Assembly: GCA_039815565.1 (NCBI GenBank)
Contig: JBCBZB010000009.1
Span: 21,461 to 85,460, forward strand
Reading direction: 5' to 3'
Source of the DNA: Planctomycetota bacterium
Lineage (GTDB): Bacteria > Planctomycetota > UBA1135 > UBA2386
DNA: 64,000 bases
Position 1 is the first letter of the stretch. Each line of letters starts with the position of its first letter. This document shows, piece after piece, positions 3,031-49,986 of the stretch. The position numbers and the translations under genes were made by a program. The notes beneath the pieces are model-generated. The model was not told the DNA's origin, did no database searches, and saw only the letters and a program-made list of their open reading frames with translations.

Positions 3031-3707
3031 GCACCCAAGGGGGCGACGGCCGAATCGGTGGACAGCGCCCGAGATGCTCTGCGCATCAAGCAGGGCACCA
3101 AGGCGACGACGCCGAGAGCCACCACCAGACTCCCCATCGTGTCGCTCGGGTGGTGACCCCACTCGCGCACACGCACCACCGCTGTCCCGAATCCCAGCGC
3201 GAGAAGGAGCGGAGACGCGCCGGGATACAGACGCGCGAGCATCAACGTGGCACCGAACGCGACAGCGACGTGCTCACTCGGAAAGCACAGGTCAGTGCCG
3301 TCGAACGGGCGATCGCCCAGTGGCGCTGTCTCCCACCCCTCGTAGCCGGCGCCGAATCGTAGATCAGGCCGACGAACGACGATCTTCAGGAGTGCGGCTA
3401 CTCCACCACTGATCCCTGCACTCATCAGGACGTAGCCGCCGACGGTCATCGCTCGCACCCGCCGCCGCGAACCGGAAGACGCCAGAACGAACGCGCTGAC
3501 CAACACGAACCAGGTCGGGATGTAGCCTGCGATCCGCAGCAGACGCTGCATGTCCGACAACCGGTTCCCGGGAGCGGGAATCGATCGAAGGATGTAGCCG
3601 TCGAGCAGCAAGGCGATCACGAACACGCTCAGCGACGCGAACCACATCCAGGATCGAATCGGCGCGAGCTTGGGCTCGTGAACGAAGGAGCGTGAGTGAG
3701 CGAGCAT
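2967..3707 (-). CDS. PAP2 family membrane phosphatase
   Basis: PAP2-like motifs KIVVRRP, FPSEH, RVREWGHHPSD; several hydrophobic helices. Confidence 0.8.
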   Translation of the reverse strand: MLAHSRSFVHEPKLAPIRSWMWFASLSVFVIALLLDGYILRSIPAPGNRLSDMQRLLRIAGYIPTWFVLVSAFVLASSGSRRRVRAMTVGGYVLMSAGISGGVAALLKIVVRRPDLRFGAGYEGWETAPLGDRPFDGTDLCFPSEHVAVAFGATLMLARLYPGASPLLLALGFGTAVVRVREWGHHPSDTMGSLVVALGVVALVPCLMRRASRALSTDSAVAPLGAQRNGVMPGRAISGTSIEPNS

Positions 3708-18785: not shown

Positions 18786-21700
18786 CGCGTGCGGACCTCC
18801 TCGGTCAGAACTCGCGGTTCGCCTTCGTAGCGAAGCAGCCACCACTTGAGGCGCGGTGCCCGCTTCCAGCCTTGCGCCAGGAACGTGACAGGGTCGAACG
18901 CGCCGGGACGGAACACGTGCATCAGTCGAGCTTGGAACTTCTGCCCGTACTGCTCGATCGGGTTGGGCTCATCGTCTGGAGCCCCGTCCTCGAAGAACCA
19001 GAGATTCGGGTCGTCCTCAGGATCCGCATCCCATCCGGCGGTGTCGTCGATTCGCACCAGAGCCCGGATGTCGACGAGTTCGTCGTCGTTCTGCTCGTTC
19101 CACAAGAACCCGTCGAACCAGGCCGGGCCGTGATCGAGGGTGATCTGCAACTTCGCGAGCTCCGGGTCATCCGCACGCTCGTGGTAGCGATCCCAATAGC
19201 GCTGCGGGAACCAGAGGACCGGCGCCCCCGCCGAATGCGCGTTGGGCGCGGTGCCGTACCGCCCGCGGAAGAGCCCTTCACTGGCAGCATCTTCGTTGGC
19301 GGGATCGTACCAGCGCGGCATGCAGAGAAGGTTGCCGGCACGGATCCAGGTGTAGTGGACCAGCTCCTGATCGATCAGAAGCGTTCCACCGCTCCGTGGC
19401 AGGGTGCCGAGGTTCAGGATCTGAAGCTCGTCCTCGTTCCGGGATGCGCCACTCGTCAGCTGCGTGGCCGGATGATGCTCGAGGAAGTGCGCGATCGCGC
19501 CCTCGGAGTGCCCTCGGGGCTCGGTGCCGAGAACGCCACGACCACCCTGTGGAACAACGACCCGCCCGGTGTTCGCATCGAACGACTCGTAGACGATCAG
19601 TTCTCCATCGACCTGCAGCATTCCGCCGTTCTGCGGGAATCGCCGATCGGCGAGCTCATCCCACTGACGCGGCCGACGTTCGACCATGTTGCCGTCCACG
19701 GTCCGGACAGAACCCAGATCACCGGCTGCGGTGATCGTGACCAGCGGGCGAACGAAAAACTCGAGCGCGTCTTCCTGGACGTTCTGATCGAGTGGACGTG
19801 GGTCGACGTGACGCACGGTCAGCGCCAACTCATCGACCGTCGCGTTGGTCGGATTGCCGAGCCCGCCGTCCGATGGTCCAAGAGTCGCCTCATCGACATC
19901 GGCGACTGGCATCTCCCCACTCGGATACTTCACCATCCGGTCGAGCAGGCGCGGATCGTTCAGGTTCTCGTCGAACGGGAACGGATCCGTGAGCCCGAGG
20001 TAGCGGGCCCGCACCGGCGCTTCGAACGCGACCAAGGTCGACTGGAACGGCCCCCATCGCGGTTGCGCGGAGAGCTCGCCCGTCTGACCGTCGACCACGT
20101 CGGTCGCGATCGTCCGGGCCGCCCAACGCACCGTATGCCACTCGGCGGTCGGTGGGTTGCCGCTGGTTCGAGCGGTCCCCTGGATCAGAGCCACCCGGTC
20201 CCCATGCCCAGCGCGCGGAGCGCTCAGGCCGAGCTGACCACTCGAGTACTCCATCCGGTGCACCGGCAGCACACGCGTCCCGGCATTCTGCGGGTGACTC
20301 GAGGTCCCGACGATCCGGCTGTCCGACTCGGTGATATCGCTCAGATCGTCACCGCGGAACTTCAAGGCCCGACGAGCGGCACCGCAGGCTGGGAAGTCGA
20401 ATTCGAGTTGGTCGATGTAGCCGACCCCGATCGAGACGTCGCCGAGAGACTGATCGAACACCGGCCACGGCGTGTCCGGGTAGAGCGAATCGATCACCAT
20501 CTGGTCGGTGACGAACTGCACCTGGGTGATGTCCAGGGCGCCCGGACCGAACAAAGCCGTCATGACGTTCTGGAACGCCTGCGTATCCGCCCGGACCACG
20601 TCGTTGCTAAGGACCGTGTCGTAGCGCACCCACTCGGTCTGCGAGCGATCGTCCGGCGTGATCTGCAACCAGTTCACCAACTCGATGTCCTGACTGACCG
20701 ATCCCGAGACCGGGATCGAGATCGGCAGAACCATCAAGTAGGAGGTCGGGATCAGGTCCCGAGGTTGGTCGCGGATGTTGAGAAACTGCGCCTCGTCCCA
20801 ATCGACGACGAAGGTGCGTGGCTCCGCGCCGTTCGGGAACCGCAGGTCCCCGGCCCGAACCTGTCCGCGCAATCCGTTGAGGGTCACCGAACGCTGAATA
20901 CCATTCAGACGGTTGCCGGCGCGGGAGCCGTAGCTGATGACCTCCATGCCTCCGATTGGAAGCGGCGGGCGAGCCGCACCAAAGTCACCCGGTTGGCCGG
21001 GACGAGGCTGCGCTGTGTAGGCGGCCGGCAGCTGGACCAAGAGCGCGAAACCACCCGAACTCGGGAACGCACTCGAGATTCGCTCGGACGCCGCTGGGGC
21101 GGGCATGTCGGCCGAGACCGGATCTGACAACTCGATCGACGCGATGTTGGTCTCGGGTCGGAAGCCCTGACCGATCAGGTCGAACTGGTTGCCGCGCTGG
21201 ACGAAGATGTCGTCGAGACCCTGCTGATTCGCGACCCGGGCGACCGCGAAGGCTCCGAGCCCGTCCTGCAGTCGAAGCTCTCCGGGCTGCAGGAATCGGT
21301 TCGGGTAGACCGGCATCGAGTAGCCGTAGAGCTCGACCGCGGCTCCGACCGGGTGCTCGGGAGAACTCGCCTCGATGTCCACCTCGCCAGCCAACTCACG
21401 AGCGGTCTGCGGATCCGCGATGTTGCTCAGGTCGAGCTGACTGAAGAACCCGATGTTCGCGCGGCAGGCCCGACCGCCCATGCCGTCGCGGTAGTCGAGG
21501 TAGAAGTTGCTCCCGTCCCTGCTGCTGTATTCGATCAGCTCACGTCCGATGCGCAACACGCCGCGCTCCGGGAAGCCATCGGTGTTCTCGACCTGGATCT
21601 GTCCAAAGCGGCTCGAATCGGTCCGGAAGTCGATCCGTCCAAAGTCGGGGGCCCAGGACGCCAAGGCCTGCGTGAGGTAGGTGCGACCCGCCGCGTTGCC

Positions 21701-42972: not shown

Positions 42973-43186
42973 GTCGGGGTCTCACGCACTCGCAGAGCGG
43001 CGACGGATGCCGCCCGGCGGGCGTGGCTAGACGATACGCCGCAGGGGCCGATGACGTCGAGCAAGACACCGCGGTACTGCCTGAGGAACTCGTGCTCGAC
43101 TCGGCCCGGCCCCCAGGGAGCGTCGCCGGGGATGCTCGATCGACTTCAACTAGCGGTCGCGACCACCTCGCCACCAGATACCGATC

Positions 43187-43738
43187 TCAGTGAGACCCAC
43201 GTGAATTGACGTTCCGCTGCGCAACCTCGACCAACTCGCCACGACGCACTTCGTAGCTGACCACACGCTCCACGGCATGCTGCCCCTGTCGCATCTTCTG
43301 CCGGACCACGTCGAGCTCCATGCCTTCGATGATCGGCAGTAGCGCCACGGCCCGGAACCCATCCTCAGCCCCTGGTGTCGAGCGCTTCTCTTCGTGGATC
43401 AGATCGGAGCTCTCCCAGATCCAGGTATCGTCGACCGAGACGAACTGACATCGGTGATTCTTACGGCTCTTGGCGACCAGCCCACCGGGACAGACGACGA
43501 ACGCGCCCTCGATCCAGGGCAACACGGCGAGACCATCTCGCCCGAACCCCGATTCGAAGGCAGCCGCGAGAACGGCGTCACGGTCCCCGGCAGCGAGCGC
43601 CCGCTCCTGGACCTCCTCCCGAATCGCCGCGCCGAGGTGGATGAGCAGGTCGTCGGAGAGCTTCCCGACCAACTCGCGGGCAGTCTCCGGATCGTCGCGC
43701 AGGTGCTTGACGATCGTGCCGTAGCGTCGAGTGGCCAA
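43187..43738 (-). CDS. Hypothetical protein
   Basis: C-terminal ~180 aa of the track ORF 43187..44044 looks protein-like and fills a gap; start (TTG 43738) uncertain. Confidence 0.6.
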   Translation of the reverse strand: MATRRYGTIVKHLRDDPETARELVGKLSDDLLIHLGAAIREEVQERALAAGDRDAVLAAAFESGFGRDGLAVLPWIEGAFVVCPGGLVAKSRKNHRCQFVSVDDTWIWESSDLIHEEKRSTPGAEDGFRAVALLPIIEGMELDVVRQKMRQGQHAVERVVSYEVRRGELVEVAQRNVNSRGSH

Positions 43739-43772
43739 GCCCGGATCATCGCGATCGATCTCACCAACACAA

Positions 43773-43805
43773 GATTTGTGCAATCGAGGAGTCTGCCCCG
43801 GACAT
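43773..43805 (+). promoter_or_regulatory. Putative autoregulatory ECF promoter GATT-N3-GCAA-N15-CGGACAT
   Basis: 18 nt upstream of the sigma ATG; same motif and spacing at 45219-45251. Confidence 0.7.
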
Positions 43806-43823
43806 CTACGTCCCGCCTCGCGG

Positions 43824-44393
43824 ATGTCCGACAAGCCGCCGCAACCCCTGACCCTGGAACAATTCGCCGAGCGCTTTGAGCGTGCGGCTCCCGTTCTGTG
43901 GTGTGTCGCGGCAGCAGTCGTCCGATCGCGGGACACCGCCGAGGATGTGGTGCAGGACGCCGCGGTCCATGCGATGGCACGACTCACGACCTTCGAACCC
44001 GGGACCAACTTCACCGCCTGGATGACCAGGATCGTGAGATTCACCGCCCTGAATCAGGTCCGCCGAACGCAGAAAGGGCCTCGACTGCTCGATCCCGAAG
44101 GAACGGACCCCGAAGCCCCCAGCCAGAGCAGTGAGTTCGTGTCCGAGTGCGGTGCACTCCTCCCCGACCAGGCAGGCCTGGATGACCGGGTCGTGGCGGG
44201 GCTCAACTCCCTCAACGAGACCGAACGGGCCTGCTTGCTCCTGCGCACGGTGCTCGAGCTGTCGTATCGTGAGATCGGCTCGTCGCTCGACATCCCGCAG
44301 GGCACGGCGATGAGCCATGTACACAGAGCGCGTCAGCACCTCGCCGCCCAACTCCGTCGAACGCCCAGCGTGGGCGTAGAGAACACTCGATGA
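43824..44393 (+). CDS. ECF family RNA polymerase sigma factor
   Basis: AEDVVQDA, FTAWMTRI (region 2); LSYREIG..LDIPQGTAMSHVHRAR (region 4). Confidence 0.93.
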   Translation: MSDKPPQPLTLEQFAERFERAAPVLWCVAAAVVRSRDTAEDVVQDAAVHAMARLTTFEPGTNFTAWMTRIVRFTALNQVRRTQKGPRLLDPEGTDPEAPSQSSEFVSECGALLPDQAGLDDRVVAGLNSLNETERACLLLRTVLELSYREIGSSLDIPQGTAMSHVHRARQHLAAQLRRTPSVGVENTR

Positions 44394-45163
44394 ACGCTCA
44401 GGACCGAGACGACCTTCAGCGATGGCTCGATGGCTCCCTCGAGGGGGCCGCGCTCACGGACTTCGAGCGACGTTGCGAGACCGACCCGGAACTGCGGGAT
44501 GAAATCCGGCTCCACCAGTCGATCGACCAGTCACTGCGCCGGAGCTTCAGTGTTCCGGAGCTGAATCTCGAACGAGCAGGGCCTCCCCGTCGCGTCGCGC
44601 CGTGGATTCCGTTCGTCCTGGGCGCGCTCGGAGCGGCCGCGATGATGCTCGTCTGGCTGCAGCCCTGGAACACGCCCGAGGAGCCAAGCCCAGAGCCGGA
44701 AGTCGCTCAGATGCTGCGCAGCGCTGTCGGTCGGAGCTGGCTCCTGTGTTGTGAGCAACCAGAGGAACTACCGACGGCGATCGATTGGTCCGCCACGTCC
44801 AACCTTCCGGGCCCGCCCATTGCGCCCACCGGTTGCTCGATGCCGGATCAACTTCCTCTCTACATTCAGCCCCTGGCGCCTGACCTGCCATCTCCCCTCG
44901 TCTGGAGGGCTCAGCCGGGGGTTCAGTTCCAACGCGGACTTGAGGAACGACCGGAAGAAGGCCTTCGCGTGATCGAACTCCTGGTCGAGCCCAGCACGAA
45001 GACGTTTCTGTTCGTCGTGTCTTCCACCAACGATCCGCGACCGACGCTCCCGGAGGCATCCGAGTGGCGCTTGTTCCGCGACGTGCGTGGACCGCTGGTT
45101 CTGTACGAACTCACGCCGCTCGATCGACCGCGCGGCCTCGAGTGCGTCGGCGACGTGAACTGA
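44390..45163 (+). CDS. Transmembrane anti-sigma factor
   Basis: ATGA overlap with sigma; ASD-like WLDGSL..FERRCETDPE; single TM; periplasmic part with 4 Cys. Confidence 0.8.
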   Translation: MNAQDRDDLQRWLDGSLEGAALTDFERRCETDPELRDEIRLHQSIDQSLRRSFSVPELNLERAGPPRRVAPWIPFVLGALGAAAMMLVWLQPWNTPEEPSPEPEVAQMLRSAVGRSWLLCCEQPEELPTAIDWSATSNLPGPPIAPTGCSMPDQLPLYIQPLAPDLPSPLVWRAQPGVQFQRGLEERPEEGLRVIELLVEPSTKTFLFVVSSTNDPRPTLPEASEWRLFRDVRGPLVLYELTPLDRPRGLECVGDVN

Positions 45164-45218
45164 ACGGTCCCGACGGGGTCTGCGCCAGCCCGCCACCGCT
45201 CCGACCGGACGATTCCGG

Positions 45219-45251
45219 GATTGTCGCAAGAGTCTCGCTGACTTCGGACAT
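45219..45251 (+). promoter_or_regulatory. Putative ECF-dependent promoter of the radical SAM operon
   Basis: GATTgtcGCAA-N15-CGGACAT, 8 nt upstream of ATG 45260; matches 43773-43805. Confidence 0.7.
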
Positions 45252-45259
45252 GTGCGGGC

Positions 45260-46726
45260 ATGACCGCCGTCCCCATCCCCGAGAGCACTGCTTCGCCGGG
45301 ACTGTTCCACACCCGCTACACGTCTGTTGCGAGGAACACGATCGACTACTGGATGCTCCCAGACGATCCGTCGATGACCGTCGAACGGGTGGAGCGTGCG
45401 ATCGAGAACACACCAGCGCTGGACGATGCGTCGCTTCAGCTCTACGTGCACGTGCCCTTCTGCGCCCAGCGCTGTCGTTTCTGCGCCTTTTCGGGAGGCA
45501 ACAGCCTCGAGTTCGATGTCGCCGAACGCTACTCGAGACTGCTCGTCGAACAGATGCGCCACTACGTCGGCCGCATCGCGATCTCAGGCCGCGCCGTCCG
45601 ATCGGTCCATCTCGGCGGCGGAAGTCCGGACCTACTCGGGCCGCACGCGAGGACCGTGCTGCGGGGCATCCGCGACCTGCCCGGAGTGACCGACGAGACC
45701 GAGATCGCCGTCGAGTTCACGGCGAGCACCGTGACCGAAGAGTTCCTGGACACGCTCGTCGAGCACGAGGTCACGAAGGCATCTTTCGGAGTGCAATCCG
45801 TCGATCCGCGCGTCCGGCGAGCGATGCGACAGCCACCGACGATGCGGCACGTGGAGCAGGCCCTTCGATGGATCGACGGACGAATCCCGATCGTGAACGC
45901 CGACTTGATTACCGGCATGCCCGGACAGGACCTCTCAACCGTCAACCGCGATCTCCGCGCGATGCTCGAGGAACCCCGCATCCACGGCATCAGCTCCTAC
46001 TTGCTCACTTCGAGTGCCGCCCCCTCGCTGGTCGCCGCAGTCGACAGTGGAGAAGTCCCCGAACCACCGTCGCCAGCGATTCAGGCCGCGATGCGGCTCC
46101 ACACCTACAGCACCCTGCAGCGAGAGGGGTGGATCCGGCGAGGCACGAACACCTACCTCGACCCGTCCCGGATCGCTCCCGAAGTCTTCACGCGCGTGTC
46201 GGGCAACGAGTGCATCGGCGGCGGCGACTACGAGTCGTTCCTCCTGGGCATCGGGGCCCAGGCCGTCGGCAACCTCCCGGGAGTACGCGTCGAGAACCTC
46301 GTCGACGTGAATGCTTGGTGCGACGCCGTCGAATCAGGTGCTCCTCCCTGGCACGCGGCCAAGTGCGCGACTGAGCACCAACGCGACACGGCCCTCTGGG
46401 TGATGCCTCTTCGTTGGGAGGGGCTGCCCCGCCGACGGTTCGAGCGAATGCTGCACGCGGGCGTGTTGTCGCAGCGTCAACTTCGAACCCTGGAGGACCT
46501 CACGCGTGAGGGCTTGCTGGTCGAGACCGCCGAGGGCTACGAACTTTCGATCCTCGGTGAAGTGTTCATGGGCCACCTGGTGCGGGATCTGAAGTCACCC
46601 GACGCCCGGCGTGCGGTCGACCACTACGCCGATGAAGGCGATGCACTCGGTAGCGCGATCGCGAGCGGGGCACTTCCTGACGCCAACATCGCCAACGACC
46701 GCCAACGAGCACCACGCCAGCTGTGA
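45260..46726 (+). CDS. HemN-like radical SAM enzyme (HemN/class C methyltransferase clade), substrate unknown
   Basis: LYVHVPFCAQRCRFC, HLGGGSP, SFGVQS, NADLITGMPGQ, LGIGAQA. Confidence 0.88.
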   Translation: MTAVPIPESTASPGLFHTRYTSVARNTIDYWMLPDDPSMTVERVERAIENTPALDDASLQLYVHVPFCAQRCRFCAFSGGNSLEFDVAERYSRLLVEQMRHYVGRIAISGRAVRSVHLGGGSPDLLGPHARTVLRGIRDLPGVTDETEIAVEFTASTVTEEFLDTLVEHEVTKASFGVQSVDPRVRRAMRQPPTMRHVEQALRWIDGRIPIVNADLITGMPGQDLSTVNRDLRAMLEEPRIHGISSYLLTSSAAPSLVAAVDSGEVPEPPSPAIQAAMRLHTYSTLQREGWIRRGTNTYLDPSRIAPEVFTRVSGNECIGGGDYESFLLGIGAQAVGNLPGVRVENLVDVNAWCDAVESGAPPWHAAKCATEHQRDTALWVMPLRWEGLPRRRFERMLHAGVLSQRQLRTLEDLTREGLLVETAEGYELSILGEVFMGHLVRDLKSPDARRAVDHYADEGDALGSAIASGALPDANIANDRQRAPRQL

Positions 46727-46736
46727 GGCGGATCGG

Positions 46737-47945
46737 ATGCTTCGTGAACTCCTCGGATTGCCAGGCCCCTTGCGGGCGCTCTTCGCTTCGACCGCGGTCT
46801 TGCGGCTCGGCGCTTTCGTCTATCCCTACCTGGCGATCTACCTGACTCGTGAGCGGGGCTTCTCGACCCTCGACGCCGGCTGGATCCTCGCCGCTGGAGG
46901 ATTGGGCCTCATGCTCGGGAACCTCGTCGGGGGCCAGATGGCAGACAGCGTCGGCCGTAAGACGACGCTTCTCTGCGCTCTTGCGATCAACGCAGCCGGA
47001 TACCTCGCCCTGCTCTCGCCACACGAGACCGGAACGGGCTACGCCCTCTCGCTCGGCTTCGCCTACCTGGGCATGGGGATGTTCACTCCGGCTGCCCAGG
47101 CGGCCGTCTCGGATCTCGCTCCAGACAGTCAACGAACCCTCGCCTACACCGGCTTCTACCTCAGTAGCAATCTCGGGATCGCGCTCGGCCCATTGGTCGG
47201 CGGAATCCTCGCCAGCCAATCGTTCACCCTCGTGTTCGTCGGCGACGTCGTCTCGACTCTGATTTGCGCCGCCCTACTGCTCCTCGGTCTTCCAGGACTC
47301 TCCGCGAAACCCGGTCGAAGCACGACCTCTCCCCCGCCCAGAGCTCTTCGAGCCTACGGACGCCACCCGAGAGTGGTTCTGGTCTGCGCCGCAGGCTTCT
47401 TCCTGACCGCCCCGTTGATGGGCCTCGAGTACGCCGTACCGCTACTGGTCGAGCGTGAGTTCGCAGCTCCGCTGCATTGGGTCGGCGTCGTGTACACGAT
47501 CAACGCGGTCACGATCCTCATCTGCAGCTTCTGGCTCGAGCGCACCGTGCGAGGCAAGCCCGAACTTCCGTTCCTGATGATCGCAGCCGTTCTGTGGACG
47601 ACCGGGCTGCTCGTCCTCGGAGTTGGCTGGTCGGTCGCAGCGATCCTCGGATCGACCCTGATCTGGACGCTCGGTGAGATCCTGACCTCGATCTTGATCC
47701 CAAGTTACGTCGCCGGGCGTGTCGCGCCGGAAGTGAAGGGCAGATTCCTCGCTCTGGTCGACCTCGGCCGAAGCACGGCGACTCTCGTCGCACCCGTGGG
47801 ACTCGGCTACCTGTGGAACTCGCACGGGTCGAGATCCGCAGTCGGCGCGATTCTCGGCGTCTCCGTCCTTGGAATCGCAGCGTTCGTGACGCTGAACATC
47901 ACGCGGTCGAAGAGGGCCGAACTTCTGTCGGGGGGCGCGTCATGA
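46737..47945 (+). CDS. MFS efflux transporter (MdtH/YdeE-like)
   Basis: PYLAIYLT, GGQMADSVGRK (motif A), NLGIALGPLVGG; ~12 TM helices. Confidence 0.9.
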   Translation: MLRELLGLPGPLRALFASTAVLRLGAFVYPYLAIYLTRERGFSTLDAGWILAAGGLGLMLGNLVGGQMADSVGRKTTLLCALAINAAGYLALLSPHETGTGYALSLGFAYLGMGMFTPAAQAAVSDLAPDSQRTLAYTGFYLSSNLGIALGPLVGGILASQSFTLVFVGDVVSTLICAALLLLGLPGLSAKPGRSTTSPPPRALRAYGRHPRVVLVCAAGFFLTAPLMGLEYAVPLLVEREFAAPLHWVGVVYTINAVTILICSFWLERTVRGKPELPFLMIAAVLWTTGLLVLGVGWSVAAILGSTLIWTLGEILTSILIPSYVAGRVAPEVKGRFLALVDLGRSTATLVAPVGLGYLWNSHGSRSAVGAILGVSVLGIAAFVTLNITRSKRAELLSGGAS

Positions 47946-49150
47946 CTCGCTTCGAACACATCGATGCACTTCGCGGGTTCGCCCTGTTCGGCATCCTGTT
48001 CGGCAACGCGACCTGGTTTTCAGGCACGGCGGTCATGCCCCCGGACGATCGAGCGGCCCTCGGCACGATCGAAGTCGACAACTGGACGCGCTGGCTCGTT
48101 CACACGTTCGTGGACGGGAAGTTCTACTCCCTGTTCTCGCTCCTGTTCGGCGTTGGGTTCGCCCTCGTCATGCAGAGAGACAGCAGCGCCGGCGGGCGCT
48201 TCCGACGTCGGATGATCGTTCTGTTGGCGATCGGCGCCCTCCACGCGTCGCTTCTCTGGTTTGGCGACATCGTCAGCCTCTACGCGGTCACAGGTCTCCT
48301 TCTGCCCCGGTGTTGGCGCATGTCCGATCGCGCGATGCTTCGTTGTTCGATCGCACTGATGCTGGCTCCGGTCCCGATCAGCCTCGCGGTCCTCGCTCTC
48401 CGCGACCCCACCACGACCTACGGAGCTGAGCACGGACCGCAGTCCTTGATTCCTGCCTTCGCAACTGGCACCTACCCGGAACTCGTGCGAGCGAACTGGG
48501 CCTTCCTCGTCGAGCGCTGGGTCCTCGCGCTCGAATCCGGCCGCTTCTGCAAGTTGCTCGGACTCTTCCTCTTGGGAGCGTGGCTCGTCCGTCGTGGCGT
48601 CGCGACCGATCCGGGGGCACACCGCGACTTCCTGGCACGAATGTGCCGAGTCAGCCTCGTCGTCGCGATCCCATCCAACCTCGCGCTGGCCTGGTTCCTG
48701 ACTAACGTCCCAGCCCACCCACCGTCGCTCCTGGGCTGCGCTCGGACCGCCACCTACGCCCTCGCAGCCCCATCGATGTGCTTCGTCTACGCGAGCACCC
48801 TATCGCTGTGCTGGCGAAAGGACTCAGCCCTGCGTCGGGCGTTCGCAGCCGCGGGCCGAATGTCTCTGACCCACTACGTCACCCAATCGATCGTCGGCGC
48901 GACGGTGTTCTACGGGGTTGGACTCGGCCTATGGGGTCGCTGGGGTGACGCCTCGGTCGCCGTGATCCTTCCGGCGTTGTTCGCGATCCAAACCGGGATC
49001 GGAGTGGTATGGCTGCACGCGGCTCGATCCGGCCCGCTCGAGAGGATGGTTCGGAGGATGAGTCCGTTGACGACGAACGGCTGCCGGCTGAAGAACGCTT
49101 CGGAAGCTCTCGAGCGCGACGACGCAACCTACAGCTCAGAGCTTTCCTGA
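47942..49150 (+). CDS. DUF418 (YeiB-like) membrane protein
   Basis: IDALRGFALFGIL, GKFYSLFSLLFGVGF, GRMSLTHYVTQS, GPLE; ATGA overlap with MFS. Confidence 0.9.
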   Translation: MTRFEHIDALRGFALFGILFGNATWFSGTAVMPPDDRAALGTIEVDNWTRWLVHTFVDGKFYSLFSLLFGVGFALVMQRDSSAGGRFRRRMIVLLAIGALHASLLWFGDIVSLYAVTGLLLPRCWRMSDRAMLRCSIALMLAPVPISLAVLALRDPTTTYGAEHGPQSLIPAFATGTYPELVRANWAFLVERWVLALESGRFCKLLGLFLLGAWLVRRGVATDPGAHRDFLARMCRVSLVVAIPSNLALAWFLTNVPAHPPSLLGCARTATYALAAPSMCFVYASTLSLCWRKDSALRRAFAAAGRMSLTHYVTQSIVGATVFYGVGLGLWGRWGDASVAVILPALFAIQTGIGVVWLHAARSGPLERMVRRMSPLTTNGCRLKNASEALERDDATYSSELS

Positions 49151-49180
49151 CCGCAGGCGCCGATCCTCGACAACTCGAGG

Positions 49181-49531
49181 TCAGAGATACTTGAGGTCGT
49201 CCTGGAGCTCGAGCCCCTGGCGCTTGGGAAGCCGGAAGTACCACCACTCGCGTTCGCTAGTCCAACCGTGTTTCGCTGCGTTCGGTTCGCCCCAAACGCA
49301 CTCGGAGACCTCCTCGGTCCGCTGTCGCACACCATCGTCGAGACGGGCCAGCTCTCGCTGCTGCGATTCGCCGAGCTCGTCGCCGCGACGCTCCAGCAAG
49401 GCGCGCAGGTCCAGATCGTCGAGGTAGCTATCGAGGCCGAACGGATACTCCCCGATCAGGGAGATCGCGAAGCGCTCCCACTGGTAGAGCAGCTCGTCGA
49501 TCGACTTCTGCTCCCCCGGTGCCGTACTCAT
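49181..49531 (-). CDS. Small acidic hypothetical protein, putative immunity protein
   Basis: 116 aa, acidic, C-terminal WWYFRLP; ATGA overlap with upstream toxin-like gene. Confidence 0.6.
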   Translation of the reverse strand: MSTAPGEQKSIDELLYQWERFAISLIGEYPFGLDSYLDDLDLRALLERRGDELGESQQRELARLDDGVRQRTEEVSECVWGEPNAAKHGWTSEREWWYFRLPKRQGLELQDDLKYL

Positions 49532-49986
49532 CGATCCGCCTGCCTGCGGAAGTAGTTCTCGCCATCATTCGGCCGGAAGAAGGTCCGGATCGACTTGTCG
49601 GCGTGGAACGCGACAAAGGCTCCCGTTCGCCGATCGAATCGGGTCACGACTCCATCTCGTCGTCGAATCTCCAACACGTCGTCCGACAGTGGCGCATCTC
49701 GAAGTGCCTTGGCGCGCTCGAGATACTCGTCGGCGTCGATCGAACCGAACTCGGTTCCGTGCTTCTCGAAGTGCGAGCGCCACGACCGCTCGGACGTGAA
49801 CCCGACCGGGCTCGTGGACGAGGGAGCCTGTGCTCCATCGCCGGATGACTCCCGGTCCTCGAGCTGAGTCCCCAATCCGCCGCCACCATTCGAATCGTCT
49901 TGGCTTCCCGGCAAATCCGAGAAGAAGAACGCCGCAATGGCCGCGAGGATCAGCCCGCCGAAAGAGAGCCCGGTCTTCTGCTTCAT
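49528..49986 (-). CDS. Membrane-anchored protein with RNase-toxin-like domain
   Basis: N-terminal hydrophobic anchor, G/S linker, then HFEKHGTEF..Y...IRTFFRP..YF. Confidence 0.65.
   Translation of the reverse strand: MKQKTGLSFGGLILAAIAAFFFSDLPGSQDDSNGGGGLGTQLEDRESSGDGAQAPSSTSPVGFTSERSWRSHFEKHGTEFGSIDADEYLERAKALRDAPLSDDVLEIRRRDGVVTRFDRRTGAFVAFHADKSIRTFFRPNDGENYFRRQADR

Follow-up and report, generated by a model that had tools for sequence, protein, structure and literature searches.

An apparently undescribed and conserved ECF sigma/anti-sigma module with a predicted radical SAM-MFS-DUF418 target operon in a Planctomycetota bacterium

The DNA considered here, called the window throughout, is a stretch of 64,000 nucleotides from a Planctomycetota bacterium (UBA1135; UBA2386), positions 21,461 to 85,460 of the forward strand of contig JBCBZB010000009.1 in assembly GCA_039815565.1. 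The assembly comprises 5,137,662 bases in 147 contigs and is 88.75% complete. The genes between positions 43773 and 49150 are best read as an autoregulated extracytoplasmic function (ECF) sigma/anti-sigma module with one dedicated target operon, encoding a HemN-fold radical S-adenosylmethionine (SAM) enzyme, a major facilitator superfamily (MFS) transporter and a DUF418 protein; we put the probability of this reading at roughly 75%. The regulon appears to be real and conserved, has a textbook architecture and is apparently undescribed. No description of this sigma factor, enzyme clade or operon was found in the literature searched. The terms DUF418, Radical_SAM, HemN and coproporphyrinogen go unmentioned in the main text and one supplement of PMC7826278, the other supplements of which might list the group. 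The features of the module, with the evidence for each, are the following.

43773..43805, forward strand: promoter motif 1, upstream of the sigma gene (exact pattern match; -35-like TGCAAT at 43779-43784, -10-like GGACAT at 43800-43805)
43824..44393, forward strand: ECF (group 4) sigma factor of the sigma-70 family, 189 residues (Pfam, NCBIfam)
44390..45163, forward strand: predicted single-pass anti-sigma factor, 257 residues (ATGA overlap, AlphaFold2 model, VIA-align)
45219..45251, forward strand: promoter motif 2, upstream of the radical SAM operon (-35-like CGCAAG at 45225-45230, -10-like GGACAT at 45246-45251)
45260..46726, forward strand: HemN-fold radical SAM enzyme of an uncharacterised clade, 488 residues (Pfam, Foldseek)
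46737..47945, forward strand: MFS transporter, 402 residues (Pfam MFS_1)
47942..49150, forward strand: DUF418/YeiB-family membrane protein, 402 residues (Pfam DUF418)

The sigma and anti-sigma genes overlap in an ATGA (44390-44393), as they also do in 11 of 13 related loci that were compared. An earlier note on this DNA, made from the sequence alone, had described the three downstream genes as tightly coupled, and they are: the radical SAM stop codon ends at 46726, the ATG of the MFS gene follows at 46737 after a 10-nucleotide gap, and the MFS and DUF418 genes again share an ATGA (47942-47945). Neither sigma-70-type promoters nor intrinsic terminators were found within 43000-49800.

The same note had reported one motif, GATT-N3-GCAA-N15-CGGACAT, with identical spacing upstream of the sigma and radical SAM genes, and both sites were read exactly so in the sequence. 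Motif 1 consists of GATT (43773-43776), TGT, GCAA (43780-43783), N15 and CGGACAT (43799-43805); motif 2 of GATT (45219-45222), GTC, GCAA (45226-45229), N15 and CGGACAT (45245-45251). With up to two mismatches allowed, the window contains three matches, namely the two exact sites and one two-mismatch site on the reverse strand at 3550-3582, against 0.08 expected by chance; none of 100 shuffles reached three. The genome-wide scan proposed in the earlier note was run as well, and it found no exact copy in the 5.14-Mb genome besides the two window sites. At up to two mismatches the genome gave seven matches and the backwards control one; the sole one-mismatch match, on contig C62, is buried beneath long open frames, with a covering frame of 1035 residues. 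In this genome the two promoters can be written as (T/C)GCAA(T/G)-N14-CGGACAT. The two copies also have GATT and GAGTCT in common, neither of which is conserved elsewhere.

Loci of radical SAM relatives were taken from species genomes (17 loci) and metagenomes (18 loci). An orthologue of the sigma factor (41-51% identity) together with an orthologue of the anti-sigma factor is encoded directly upstream of the radical SAM gene in L012, L016, L017, L030, L031, L032, L034, L035, L037, L039, L040, L042 and L045. The corresponding pair in L033 is 3.3 kb away from the radical SAM gene, again on its upstream side, and L036 and L014 have a partial anti-sigma gene at the contig end. In these loci, which are mostly from Myxococcota, a core GCAA-N18-ACAT, with the consensus TGCAAG-N15-CGACAT, precedes both the sigma and the radical SAM genes. 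It is present in 26 instances in the window and 13 loci, always with a span of 26 nucleotides. Outside the search pattern the flanks are biased too, with T before GCAA in 22 of 26 instances, G after GCAA in 20 of 26, and C and G before ACAT in 20 of 26 and 23 of 26, respectively. Of the motif as it stood in the earlier note, the GCAA...GACAT part is therefore conserved in related loci; the GATT part belongs to this genome, its best position being a T in 12 of 26 instances.

Both positions, one ahead of the sigma gene and one ahead of the radical SAM gene, are occupied in the window and in 12 further loci. On the sigma side the N18 spacing is present in 11 of the 12 related loci with sequence there, and L037 has N19. 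Three loci have the motif on the radical SAM side only, the region upstream of the sigma gene being missing or the spacer one base longer; an N19 spacer occurs at three more sites, the sigma site of L037 and the radical SAM sites of L036 and L014. Absence of the motif from orthologous operons would have spoken against the earlier note, but 15 related loci have it ahead of their radical SAM gene, with N18 in 12 and N19 in three. In 15 loci of this kind (259,584 strand-bases) GCAA-N18-ACAT has 25 matches, 24 of them at the two promoter positions. The spacer sequences differ among loci, so the sharing of the motif is not simply common descent of one block of DNA. The synteny and motif conservation to be looked for in related genomes were found, as the sigma/anti-sigma pair recurs and the core motif does so at both positions, and the comparison supports the autoregulatory, bipartite-motif interpretation, with use of the motif by the adjacent sigma factor as a prediction.

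The earlier note had called the regulon self-contained, and this fits what was found. Simple pattern scans of the 88.75% complete genome and of two large Myxococcota genomes gave no convincing additional target. A looser pattern, GCAA-N17-GACAT, has 16 matches in the genome, which is not above the numbers for neighbouring spacings (16-35); in a crude open-frame test, 12 of the 14 matches other than the promoters lay beneath long coding-like frames. Among the extra candidates inspected, one on contig C38 lies inside a helicase-like gene and one on C146, a possible target, overlaps the end of an upstream frame. A third, on C28, precedes a prepilin-like gene (N-terminus GFTLIELMIVV): this site (G000:C28:47209, reverse strand; L048) reads GCAACC-N..-TGACAT with the right spacing, lies 26 nucleotides before the gene and may be a weak additional target or chance. 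TGCAA-N17-GACAT occurs five times in the 12.3-Mb genome with L012, two of the five being the two promoters, and twice in the 11.3-Mb genome with L016; three of the four extra sites in these two genomes are intragenic.

The distance from the motif to the start codon is short on the target side. In the window the ATG of the radical SAM gene lies 8 nucleotides downstream of its motif and that of the sigma gene 18 nucleotides downstream. The first in-frame radical SAM start after the motif lies at 8-9 nucleotides in the window and 12 loci and at 12 nucleotides in three loci (the distance in L042 was taken from the printed sequence), and an earlier in-frame start is absent in most loci. The sigma genes as a whole start 18-38 nucleotides past their motif. 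At ECF promoters transcription usually starts 6-8 nucleotides after the -10 element, which would give a radical SAM message with no leader, or almost none. Since in each of 16 operons compared the start codon comes 8-12 nucleotides past the -10 element, the radical SAM mRNA is probably leaderless or nearly so.

The identity of the regulatory pair as sigma and anti-sigma factor, also proposed in the earlier note, holds. The sigma factor matches Pfam Sigma70_r2 (48.1 bits) and Sigma70_r4_2 (49.8 bits), has regions 2 and 4 only, with no match to region 1 or 3, and passes the NCBIfam model TIGR02937 (sigma70-ECF) with 72.6 bits against a cut-off of 42.9. The product of the coupled gene at 44390-45163 matches no Pfam family (E up to 0.01, then up to 1) and no NCBIfam family. 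It is composed of an N-terminal three-helix domain (residues ~1-52), a transmembrane helix (~72-90) and a periplasmic alpha/beta domain (~103-257). Its AlphaFold2 model, built from 66 sequences, has a mean predicted local distance difference test (pLDDT) score of 82.9, and helices 3-13, 19-31 and 33-52 exceed 93. When the model was run with VIA-align against 48,161 PDB chains, the N-terminus matched RsiW (Z 7.0), the cytoplasmic domain of MucA (Z 5.4; root-mean-square deviation 2.5 over 53 residues), RslA (Z 4.8) and RseA (Z 4.7), and further the anti-sigma domains of RsdA type and of PupR; for helical domains, Z values of this size are middling. By its model the protein fits the description of a class-I-type anti-sigma factor, with a putative helical sigma-binding domain followed by a transmembrane helix. 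A zinc-binding anti-sigma (ZAS) domain was considered and rejected, as there is neither a Pfam zf-HC2 match nor an H-x3-C-x2-C motif in residues 1-60.

Residues 154-257 of the anti-sigma factor resemble the C-terminal domains of MucB (6jau, Z 6.1) and RseB (2v42, Z 5.7) in VIA-align, again with middling values, and an Atlas search gave the same lead. Foldseek of the model against the PDB returned nothing at E up to 0.001 (MucB/RseB, E 0.14), so that the likeness to RseB is to be taken as a lead only; the MucB_RseB Pfam domains gave no match, and the structural match is confined to the C-terminal domain. A profile of 14 orthologues searched against 1.84 billion proteins found 775 representative clusters at E <= 0.001, of which 23 were at E <= 1e-30. 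Members of the wider family are alike mainly in their last 60 residues and in an N-terminal segment, and the genome encodes one full-length member. Most Myxococcota orthologues have four periplasmic cysteines (including an ECGG...C block), largely lost in the window protein. Their cytoplasmic N-terminus is also much shorter and begins close to a conserved I-x-x-S-L-R-R-x-F motif.

The designation of the first target gene product as a HemN-like radical SAM protein stands. It passes Pfam Radical_SAM (76.5 bits, cut-off 29.5), and its model (pLDDT 89.6) has the full-length HemN fold, the best Foldseek match being HemN (1olt; E 3e-20, TM 0.66/0.74, 458 columns), far ahead of the second. A PDB sequence search likewise gave HemN 1olt (E 2e-14), as well as NocN (9p2u; E 4.5e-10) over the N-terminal half. 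As in HemN, HemW and ChuW/HutW, there is a C-x3-C-x2-C cluster motif; it reads CAQRCRFC and is invariant in 16 of 16 aligned sequences. A GGGSP loop takes the place of GGGTP in HemN, and Phe stands at the residue after the third cluster cysteine plus one, where E. coli HemN has a fourth Cys. The enzyme differs from all three families in missing their NCBIfam cut-offs (ChuW/HutW, TIGR04107, 149.3 of 400 bits; HemN, TIGR00538, 97.1 of 324.95; HemW, TIGR00539, 83.7 of 205.4) and in carrying signature blocks private to its clade, which are invariant in the 16-sequence alignment: NTIDYWM, GTNTY, GNECIG, GEVFMG and NNRQ. The genome has its true HemN elsewhere, on contig C46 (540.7 bits), and its true HemW on C136 (306.6 bits). 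The label 'ChuW-like' was dropped as non-specific and unwarranted, since the ChuW/HutW model scores the genome's own HemW (179.9) and HemN (155.6) above the window enzyme (149.2).

Homologues of the enzyme, 47-79% identical, are spread across Planctomycetota, Myxococcota, Streptomyces, Pandoraea, a Vibrio and Sorangium, and are named 'radical SAM protein' or coproporphyrinogen oxidase at their sources; Paraliomyxa miuraensis is one of the carriers. In its own phylum the gene is rare, occurring in three of 401 genomes searched, this one included, and in none of five of the same family. One homologue, P0110 (639 residues), has a DUF6506 domain fused to its N-terminus.

The earlier note had taken both the MFS and the DUF418 protein for transport-type proteins. 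This holds for the former, which passes Pfam MFS_1 (125.3 bits, cut-off 33.4); its NCBIfam matches are all far below their cut-offs (best TIGR00900, 47.3 of 319.6), and its start is backed by orthologue alignments beginning at residues 1-8. It holds less well for the latter. The DUF418 protein passes Pfam DUF418 (120.8 bits, cut-off 23.6) and aligns over its full length with the NCBIfam YeiB model at 107.5 bits, under the equivalog cut-off of 325. As described in PMC12423673, DUF418 belongs to a superfamily of transmembrane acyltransferases together with HGSNAT and the AT3 O-acetyltransferases, with a D-x-x-R motif in the first transmembrane helix. The window protein, with the N-terminus MTRFEHIDALRG, has D-x-x-R at residues 8-11 in its first helix, and is better described as a member of this superfamily, with a predicted acyltransferase activity, than as a transporter.

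Ten of the 17 genome loci have the trio of radical SAM, MFS and DUF418 genes; the other seven, all from Streptomyces, have the enzyme gene alone. The Streptomyces neighbourhoods were set aside as a functional clue, as the neighbours vary by locus. In seven Planctomycetota loci (L008-L011, L013, L024 and L028) the cassette lies beside a Ser/Thr kinase and a different ECF sigma factor. All five kinases examined (~630-660 residues) have one CxxCH heme-c motif in an extracytoplasmic Tll0287-like domain between two hydrophobic stretches. In four of these loci (L009, L010, L013 and L024) an element TGTAAC-N7-CGTTA is found ahead of the kinase-sigma operon and again ahead of the radical SAM gene, a layout that mirrors the two sites of the window with a different motif; as the element is partly palindromic (GTAACG...CGTTAC), it may be an operator and not a promoter. 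ECF groups associated with kinases, ECF43 among them, are known (PMC7826278), and the kinase-type loci show the arrangement of kinase and ECF sigma factor described there. The window differs from them in its anti-sigma factor and in its motif. Since the same cassette is found beside the anti-sigma type and the kinase type, it looks like an effector module wired to two ECF inputs. The coordinates in these loci are given below, along with those of a ~770-residue protein with a PQQ_2 beta-propeller and a 'putative esterase' part that follows DUF418 in kinase-type loci and is absent from the window.

Ser/Thr kinases with CxxCH, ECF sigma gene next: L009:3099-5063; L010:3222-5201; L013:3076-5052; L011:3855-5744 (reverse strand); L008:545-2461 (reverse strand)
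TGTAAC-N7-CGTTA sites: L009:2968 and 5904; L010:3196 and 5880; L013:3053 and 5863; L024:3201 and 5865; L011:5892
Beta-propeller/esterase protein, ~770 residues: L009:10009-12354; L010:9471-11786; L011:9966-12281; L013:9979-12303
H-NOX (heme-NO-binding) protein and PAS histidine kinase, immediately downstream of the cassette (Phycisphaerae genome): L024:10309-12286

Under the reading of an autoregulated module with one target operon, the N-terminal three-helix domain of the anti-sigma factor would hold the sigma factor in the resting state. A periplasmic or envelope signal acting on the 155-residue periplasmic domain would free it, and the freed sigma factor would bring RNA polymerase to the two promoters of the type TGCAAG-N15-CGACAT. 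The promoter before the sigma and anti-sigma genes would provide positive feedback; the second, 8 nucleotides before the start codon, would drive a leaderless or near-leaderless message for the radical SAM-MFS-DUF418 operon. The radical SAM enzyme, in the cytoplasm, may then modify a common small molecule, and the two membrane proteins may export and/or acylate the product or a related envelope acceptor. The characterised HemN-fold enzymes treated in PMC10114718 and PMC10114669 act on or bind tetrapyrroles, or move C1 units onto small molecules. A tetrapyrrole or similar planar cofactor would be the best guess for the substrate, a choice made from the HemN fold. The fold, the conservation across phyla, the lone gene in Streptomyces and the pairing of MFS and acyltransferase-family proteins together suggest that a ubiquitous endogenous molecule is made or modified and exported.

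Several observations weigh against this reading or narrow it. ECF promoters typically have the words AAC and CGT, from which GCAAG and GACAT differ. The related loci do not all count separately: L017 and L031 are almost the same, L016 and L017 have the same sigma promoter, and L032 and L033 are close, so that there are fewer independent lineages than loci. The cassette also occurs without this sigma/anti-sigma pair, beside the kinase and other sigma factor in seven loci and as a lone gene in the seven Streptomyces loci. Given the incomplete assembly and the simple patterns used, further targets may exist, and the C28 site before the prepilin-like gene is one candidate. The transcription start sites, the induction and the leaderless state are predictions from sequence. 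So are the substrate and the chemistry.

Alternatives were weighed for the motif as well as for the enzyme. That the two copies are a chance likeness or a functionless local duplication might be argued from their additional identity in GATT and GAGTCT, which is not conserved elsewhere; this is effectively refuted by the shuffles, by the presence of only two exact copies in 5.14 Mb, and by the core recurring at both positions, with different spacer sequences, in loci of another phylum. It is highly improbable that the motif is the operator of some other regulator, or a sigma-70-type element, with the targets of the adjacent sigma factor lying elsewhere. In favour of it, the -35 and -10 words are not the AAC and CGT typical of ECF promoters, and the element of the kinase-type loci is partly palindromic, as operators are. 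The window motif, in contrast, is bipartite and non-palindromic with an invariant 26-nucleotide span, and lies at a fixed short distance from the start codons. It accompanies the sigma/anti-sigma pair and gives way to another element where the pair is swapped out, and no sigma-70-like promoter was found around it. It also precedes the sigma gene itself, which is a hallmark of ECF regulation, as these sigma factors usually autoregulate and are encoded together with their regulators and targets (PMC7826278).

With respect to function, the operon might serve an inducible defence against xenobiotics or antibiotics, in line with the detoxification or resistance role suggested in the earlier note. 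The anti-sigma factor would sense an envelope-active compound and the MFS protein export it; the acyltransferase would act on the compound or on a polymer of the envelope, and the radical SAM enzyme would change either the drug or what it targets. ECF sigma factors commonly answer envelope stress (PMC7826278), and the DUF418 superfamily includes envelope O-acetyltransferases (PMC12423673). The MFS protein weakly matches drug and siderophore exporters, but all of its subfamily matches are far below their cut-offs. The distribution looks patchy and accessory in the phylum; yet the conservation of the enzyme across phyla and its frequent occurrence alone are easier to square with a universal substrate of the cell's own than with any one drug. 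We know of no HemN-like enzyme with a role in resistance, no specific search having been made, and consider defence an unlikely function. A ChuW/HutW-type anaerobic heme-degrading methyltransferase, in an operon for iron acquisition from heme, is a distinctly poor candidate. ChuW/HutW is the top NCBIfam match, covering model positions 39-413 of 419, the window enzyme has a HemN-like fold, and heme-based sensors (the CxxCH kinase, the H-NOX domain) adjoin the cassette in other loci. The score, however, is far under the cut-off and below those of the genome's own HemW and HemN, and in Streptomyces members of the enzyme's family stand alone. ChuW/HutW is described as part of a three-gene operon with X and Y/Z partners (chuX/hutX, chuY/hutZ), linked to heme uptake and under Fur control (PMC10114669), whereas the partners in the window are MFS and DUF418 proteins and the neighbours are without heme-uptake families; a Fur box and genome-wide heme uptake were not searched for.

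A wider proposal, possible but doubtful as a whole, is that of a horizontally mobile cassette that performs a new HemN-fold reaction on a tetrapyrrole, quinone or similar cofactor, coupled to export and/or to acylation outside the cytoplasm. It would have been plugged at least twice into ECF inputs, an RseB-like anti-sigma factor in the window and Myxococcota and a periplasmic heme-c kinase in other Planctomycetota, and would always be leaderless in the anti-sigma type.

Compared with known systems, the module resembles SigW-RsiW, RpoE-RseA and AlgU-MucA in a sigma factor with regions 2 and 4 only, in a translationally coupled anti-sigma factor with a helical domain, one transmembrane helix and an extracytoplasmic domain, and in a predicted bipartite promoter ahead of both the sigma gene and the target. 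It differs from them in the words TGCAAG/CGACAT, in an anti-sigma factor without Pfam family or H-x3-C-x2-C, in a regulon of apparently one operon and in a target mRNA that is probably leaderless. In known systems MucB/RseB is a separate protein, whereas here the periplasmic domain of the anti-sigma factor itself may resemble its C-terminal domain (Z ~6, a lead). In SigV-RsiV-OatA an ECF sigma/anti-sigma pair is co-transcribed with or adjacent to a gene of the transmembrane acyltransferase superfamily, as in the window; the window protein is of the YeiB/DUF418 branch and not AT3, and is encoded by the third gene, after those of the radical SAM and MFS proteins. No lysozyme-binding domain of RsiV type was detected in the window anti-sigma factor with Pfam.

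In its regulation the module follows the usual pattern of ECF sigma factors, and the general view of them is unchanged. What is new here is the sigma/promoter pair, the unnamed anti-sigma family, the predicted leaderless target, and the orphan HemN-like clade with its YeiB-type partner. The cross-phylum pair of sigma factor and TGCAAG-N15-CGACAT promoter could be used as an orthogonal switch and is a conserved example of an ECF promoter feeding a predicted leaderless mRNA. The operon offers an entry point to a radical SAM clade so far carried under general database labels, and a first physiological context for a YeiB/DUF418 protein, from a family that has no known function.

A few minor observations concern the surroundings of the module and its variants. 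A divergent open frame at 43187-43738 on the reverse strand bounds the module on its upstream side; it has a coding-like codon-position G+C (0.74/0.43/0.78) and matches no Pfam family. Its start could be a TTG at either 43738 or 43783, and the short intergenic region may serve this frame as well as the sigma promoter. In one planctomycete genome (L049, G069:C1, 6036-10995, reverse strand) the radical SAM gene is followed by genes for an ATP-grasp protein like L-amino-acid ligases, an MFS protein and an AhpC/TSA peroxiredoxin; this variant is without a DUF418 gene and has neither promoter motif upstream. An ECF sigma gene lies directly upstream of the Streptomyces radical SAM gene in L019 and L023. 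In L018-L023, some 60-160 nucleotides upstream of the lone Streptomyces gene, there is a conserved sequence, GTGGTC...GCAAAG...GTGGACTGG, followed by CCTGCCTAACGTCAGCC, which may be a regulator site.

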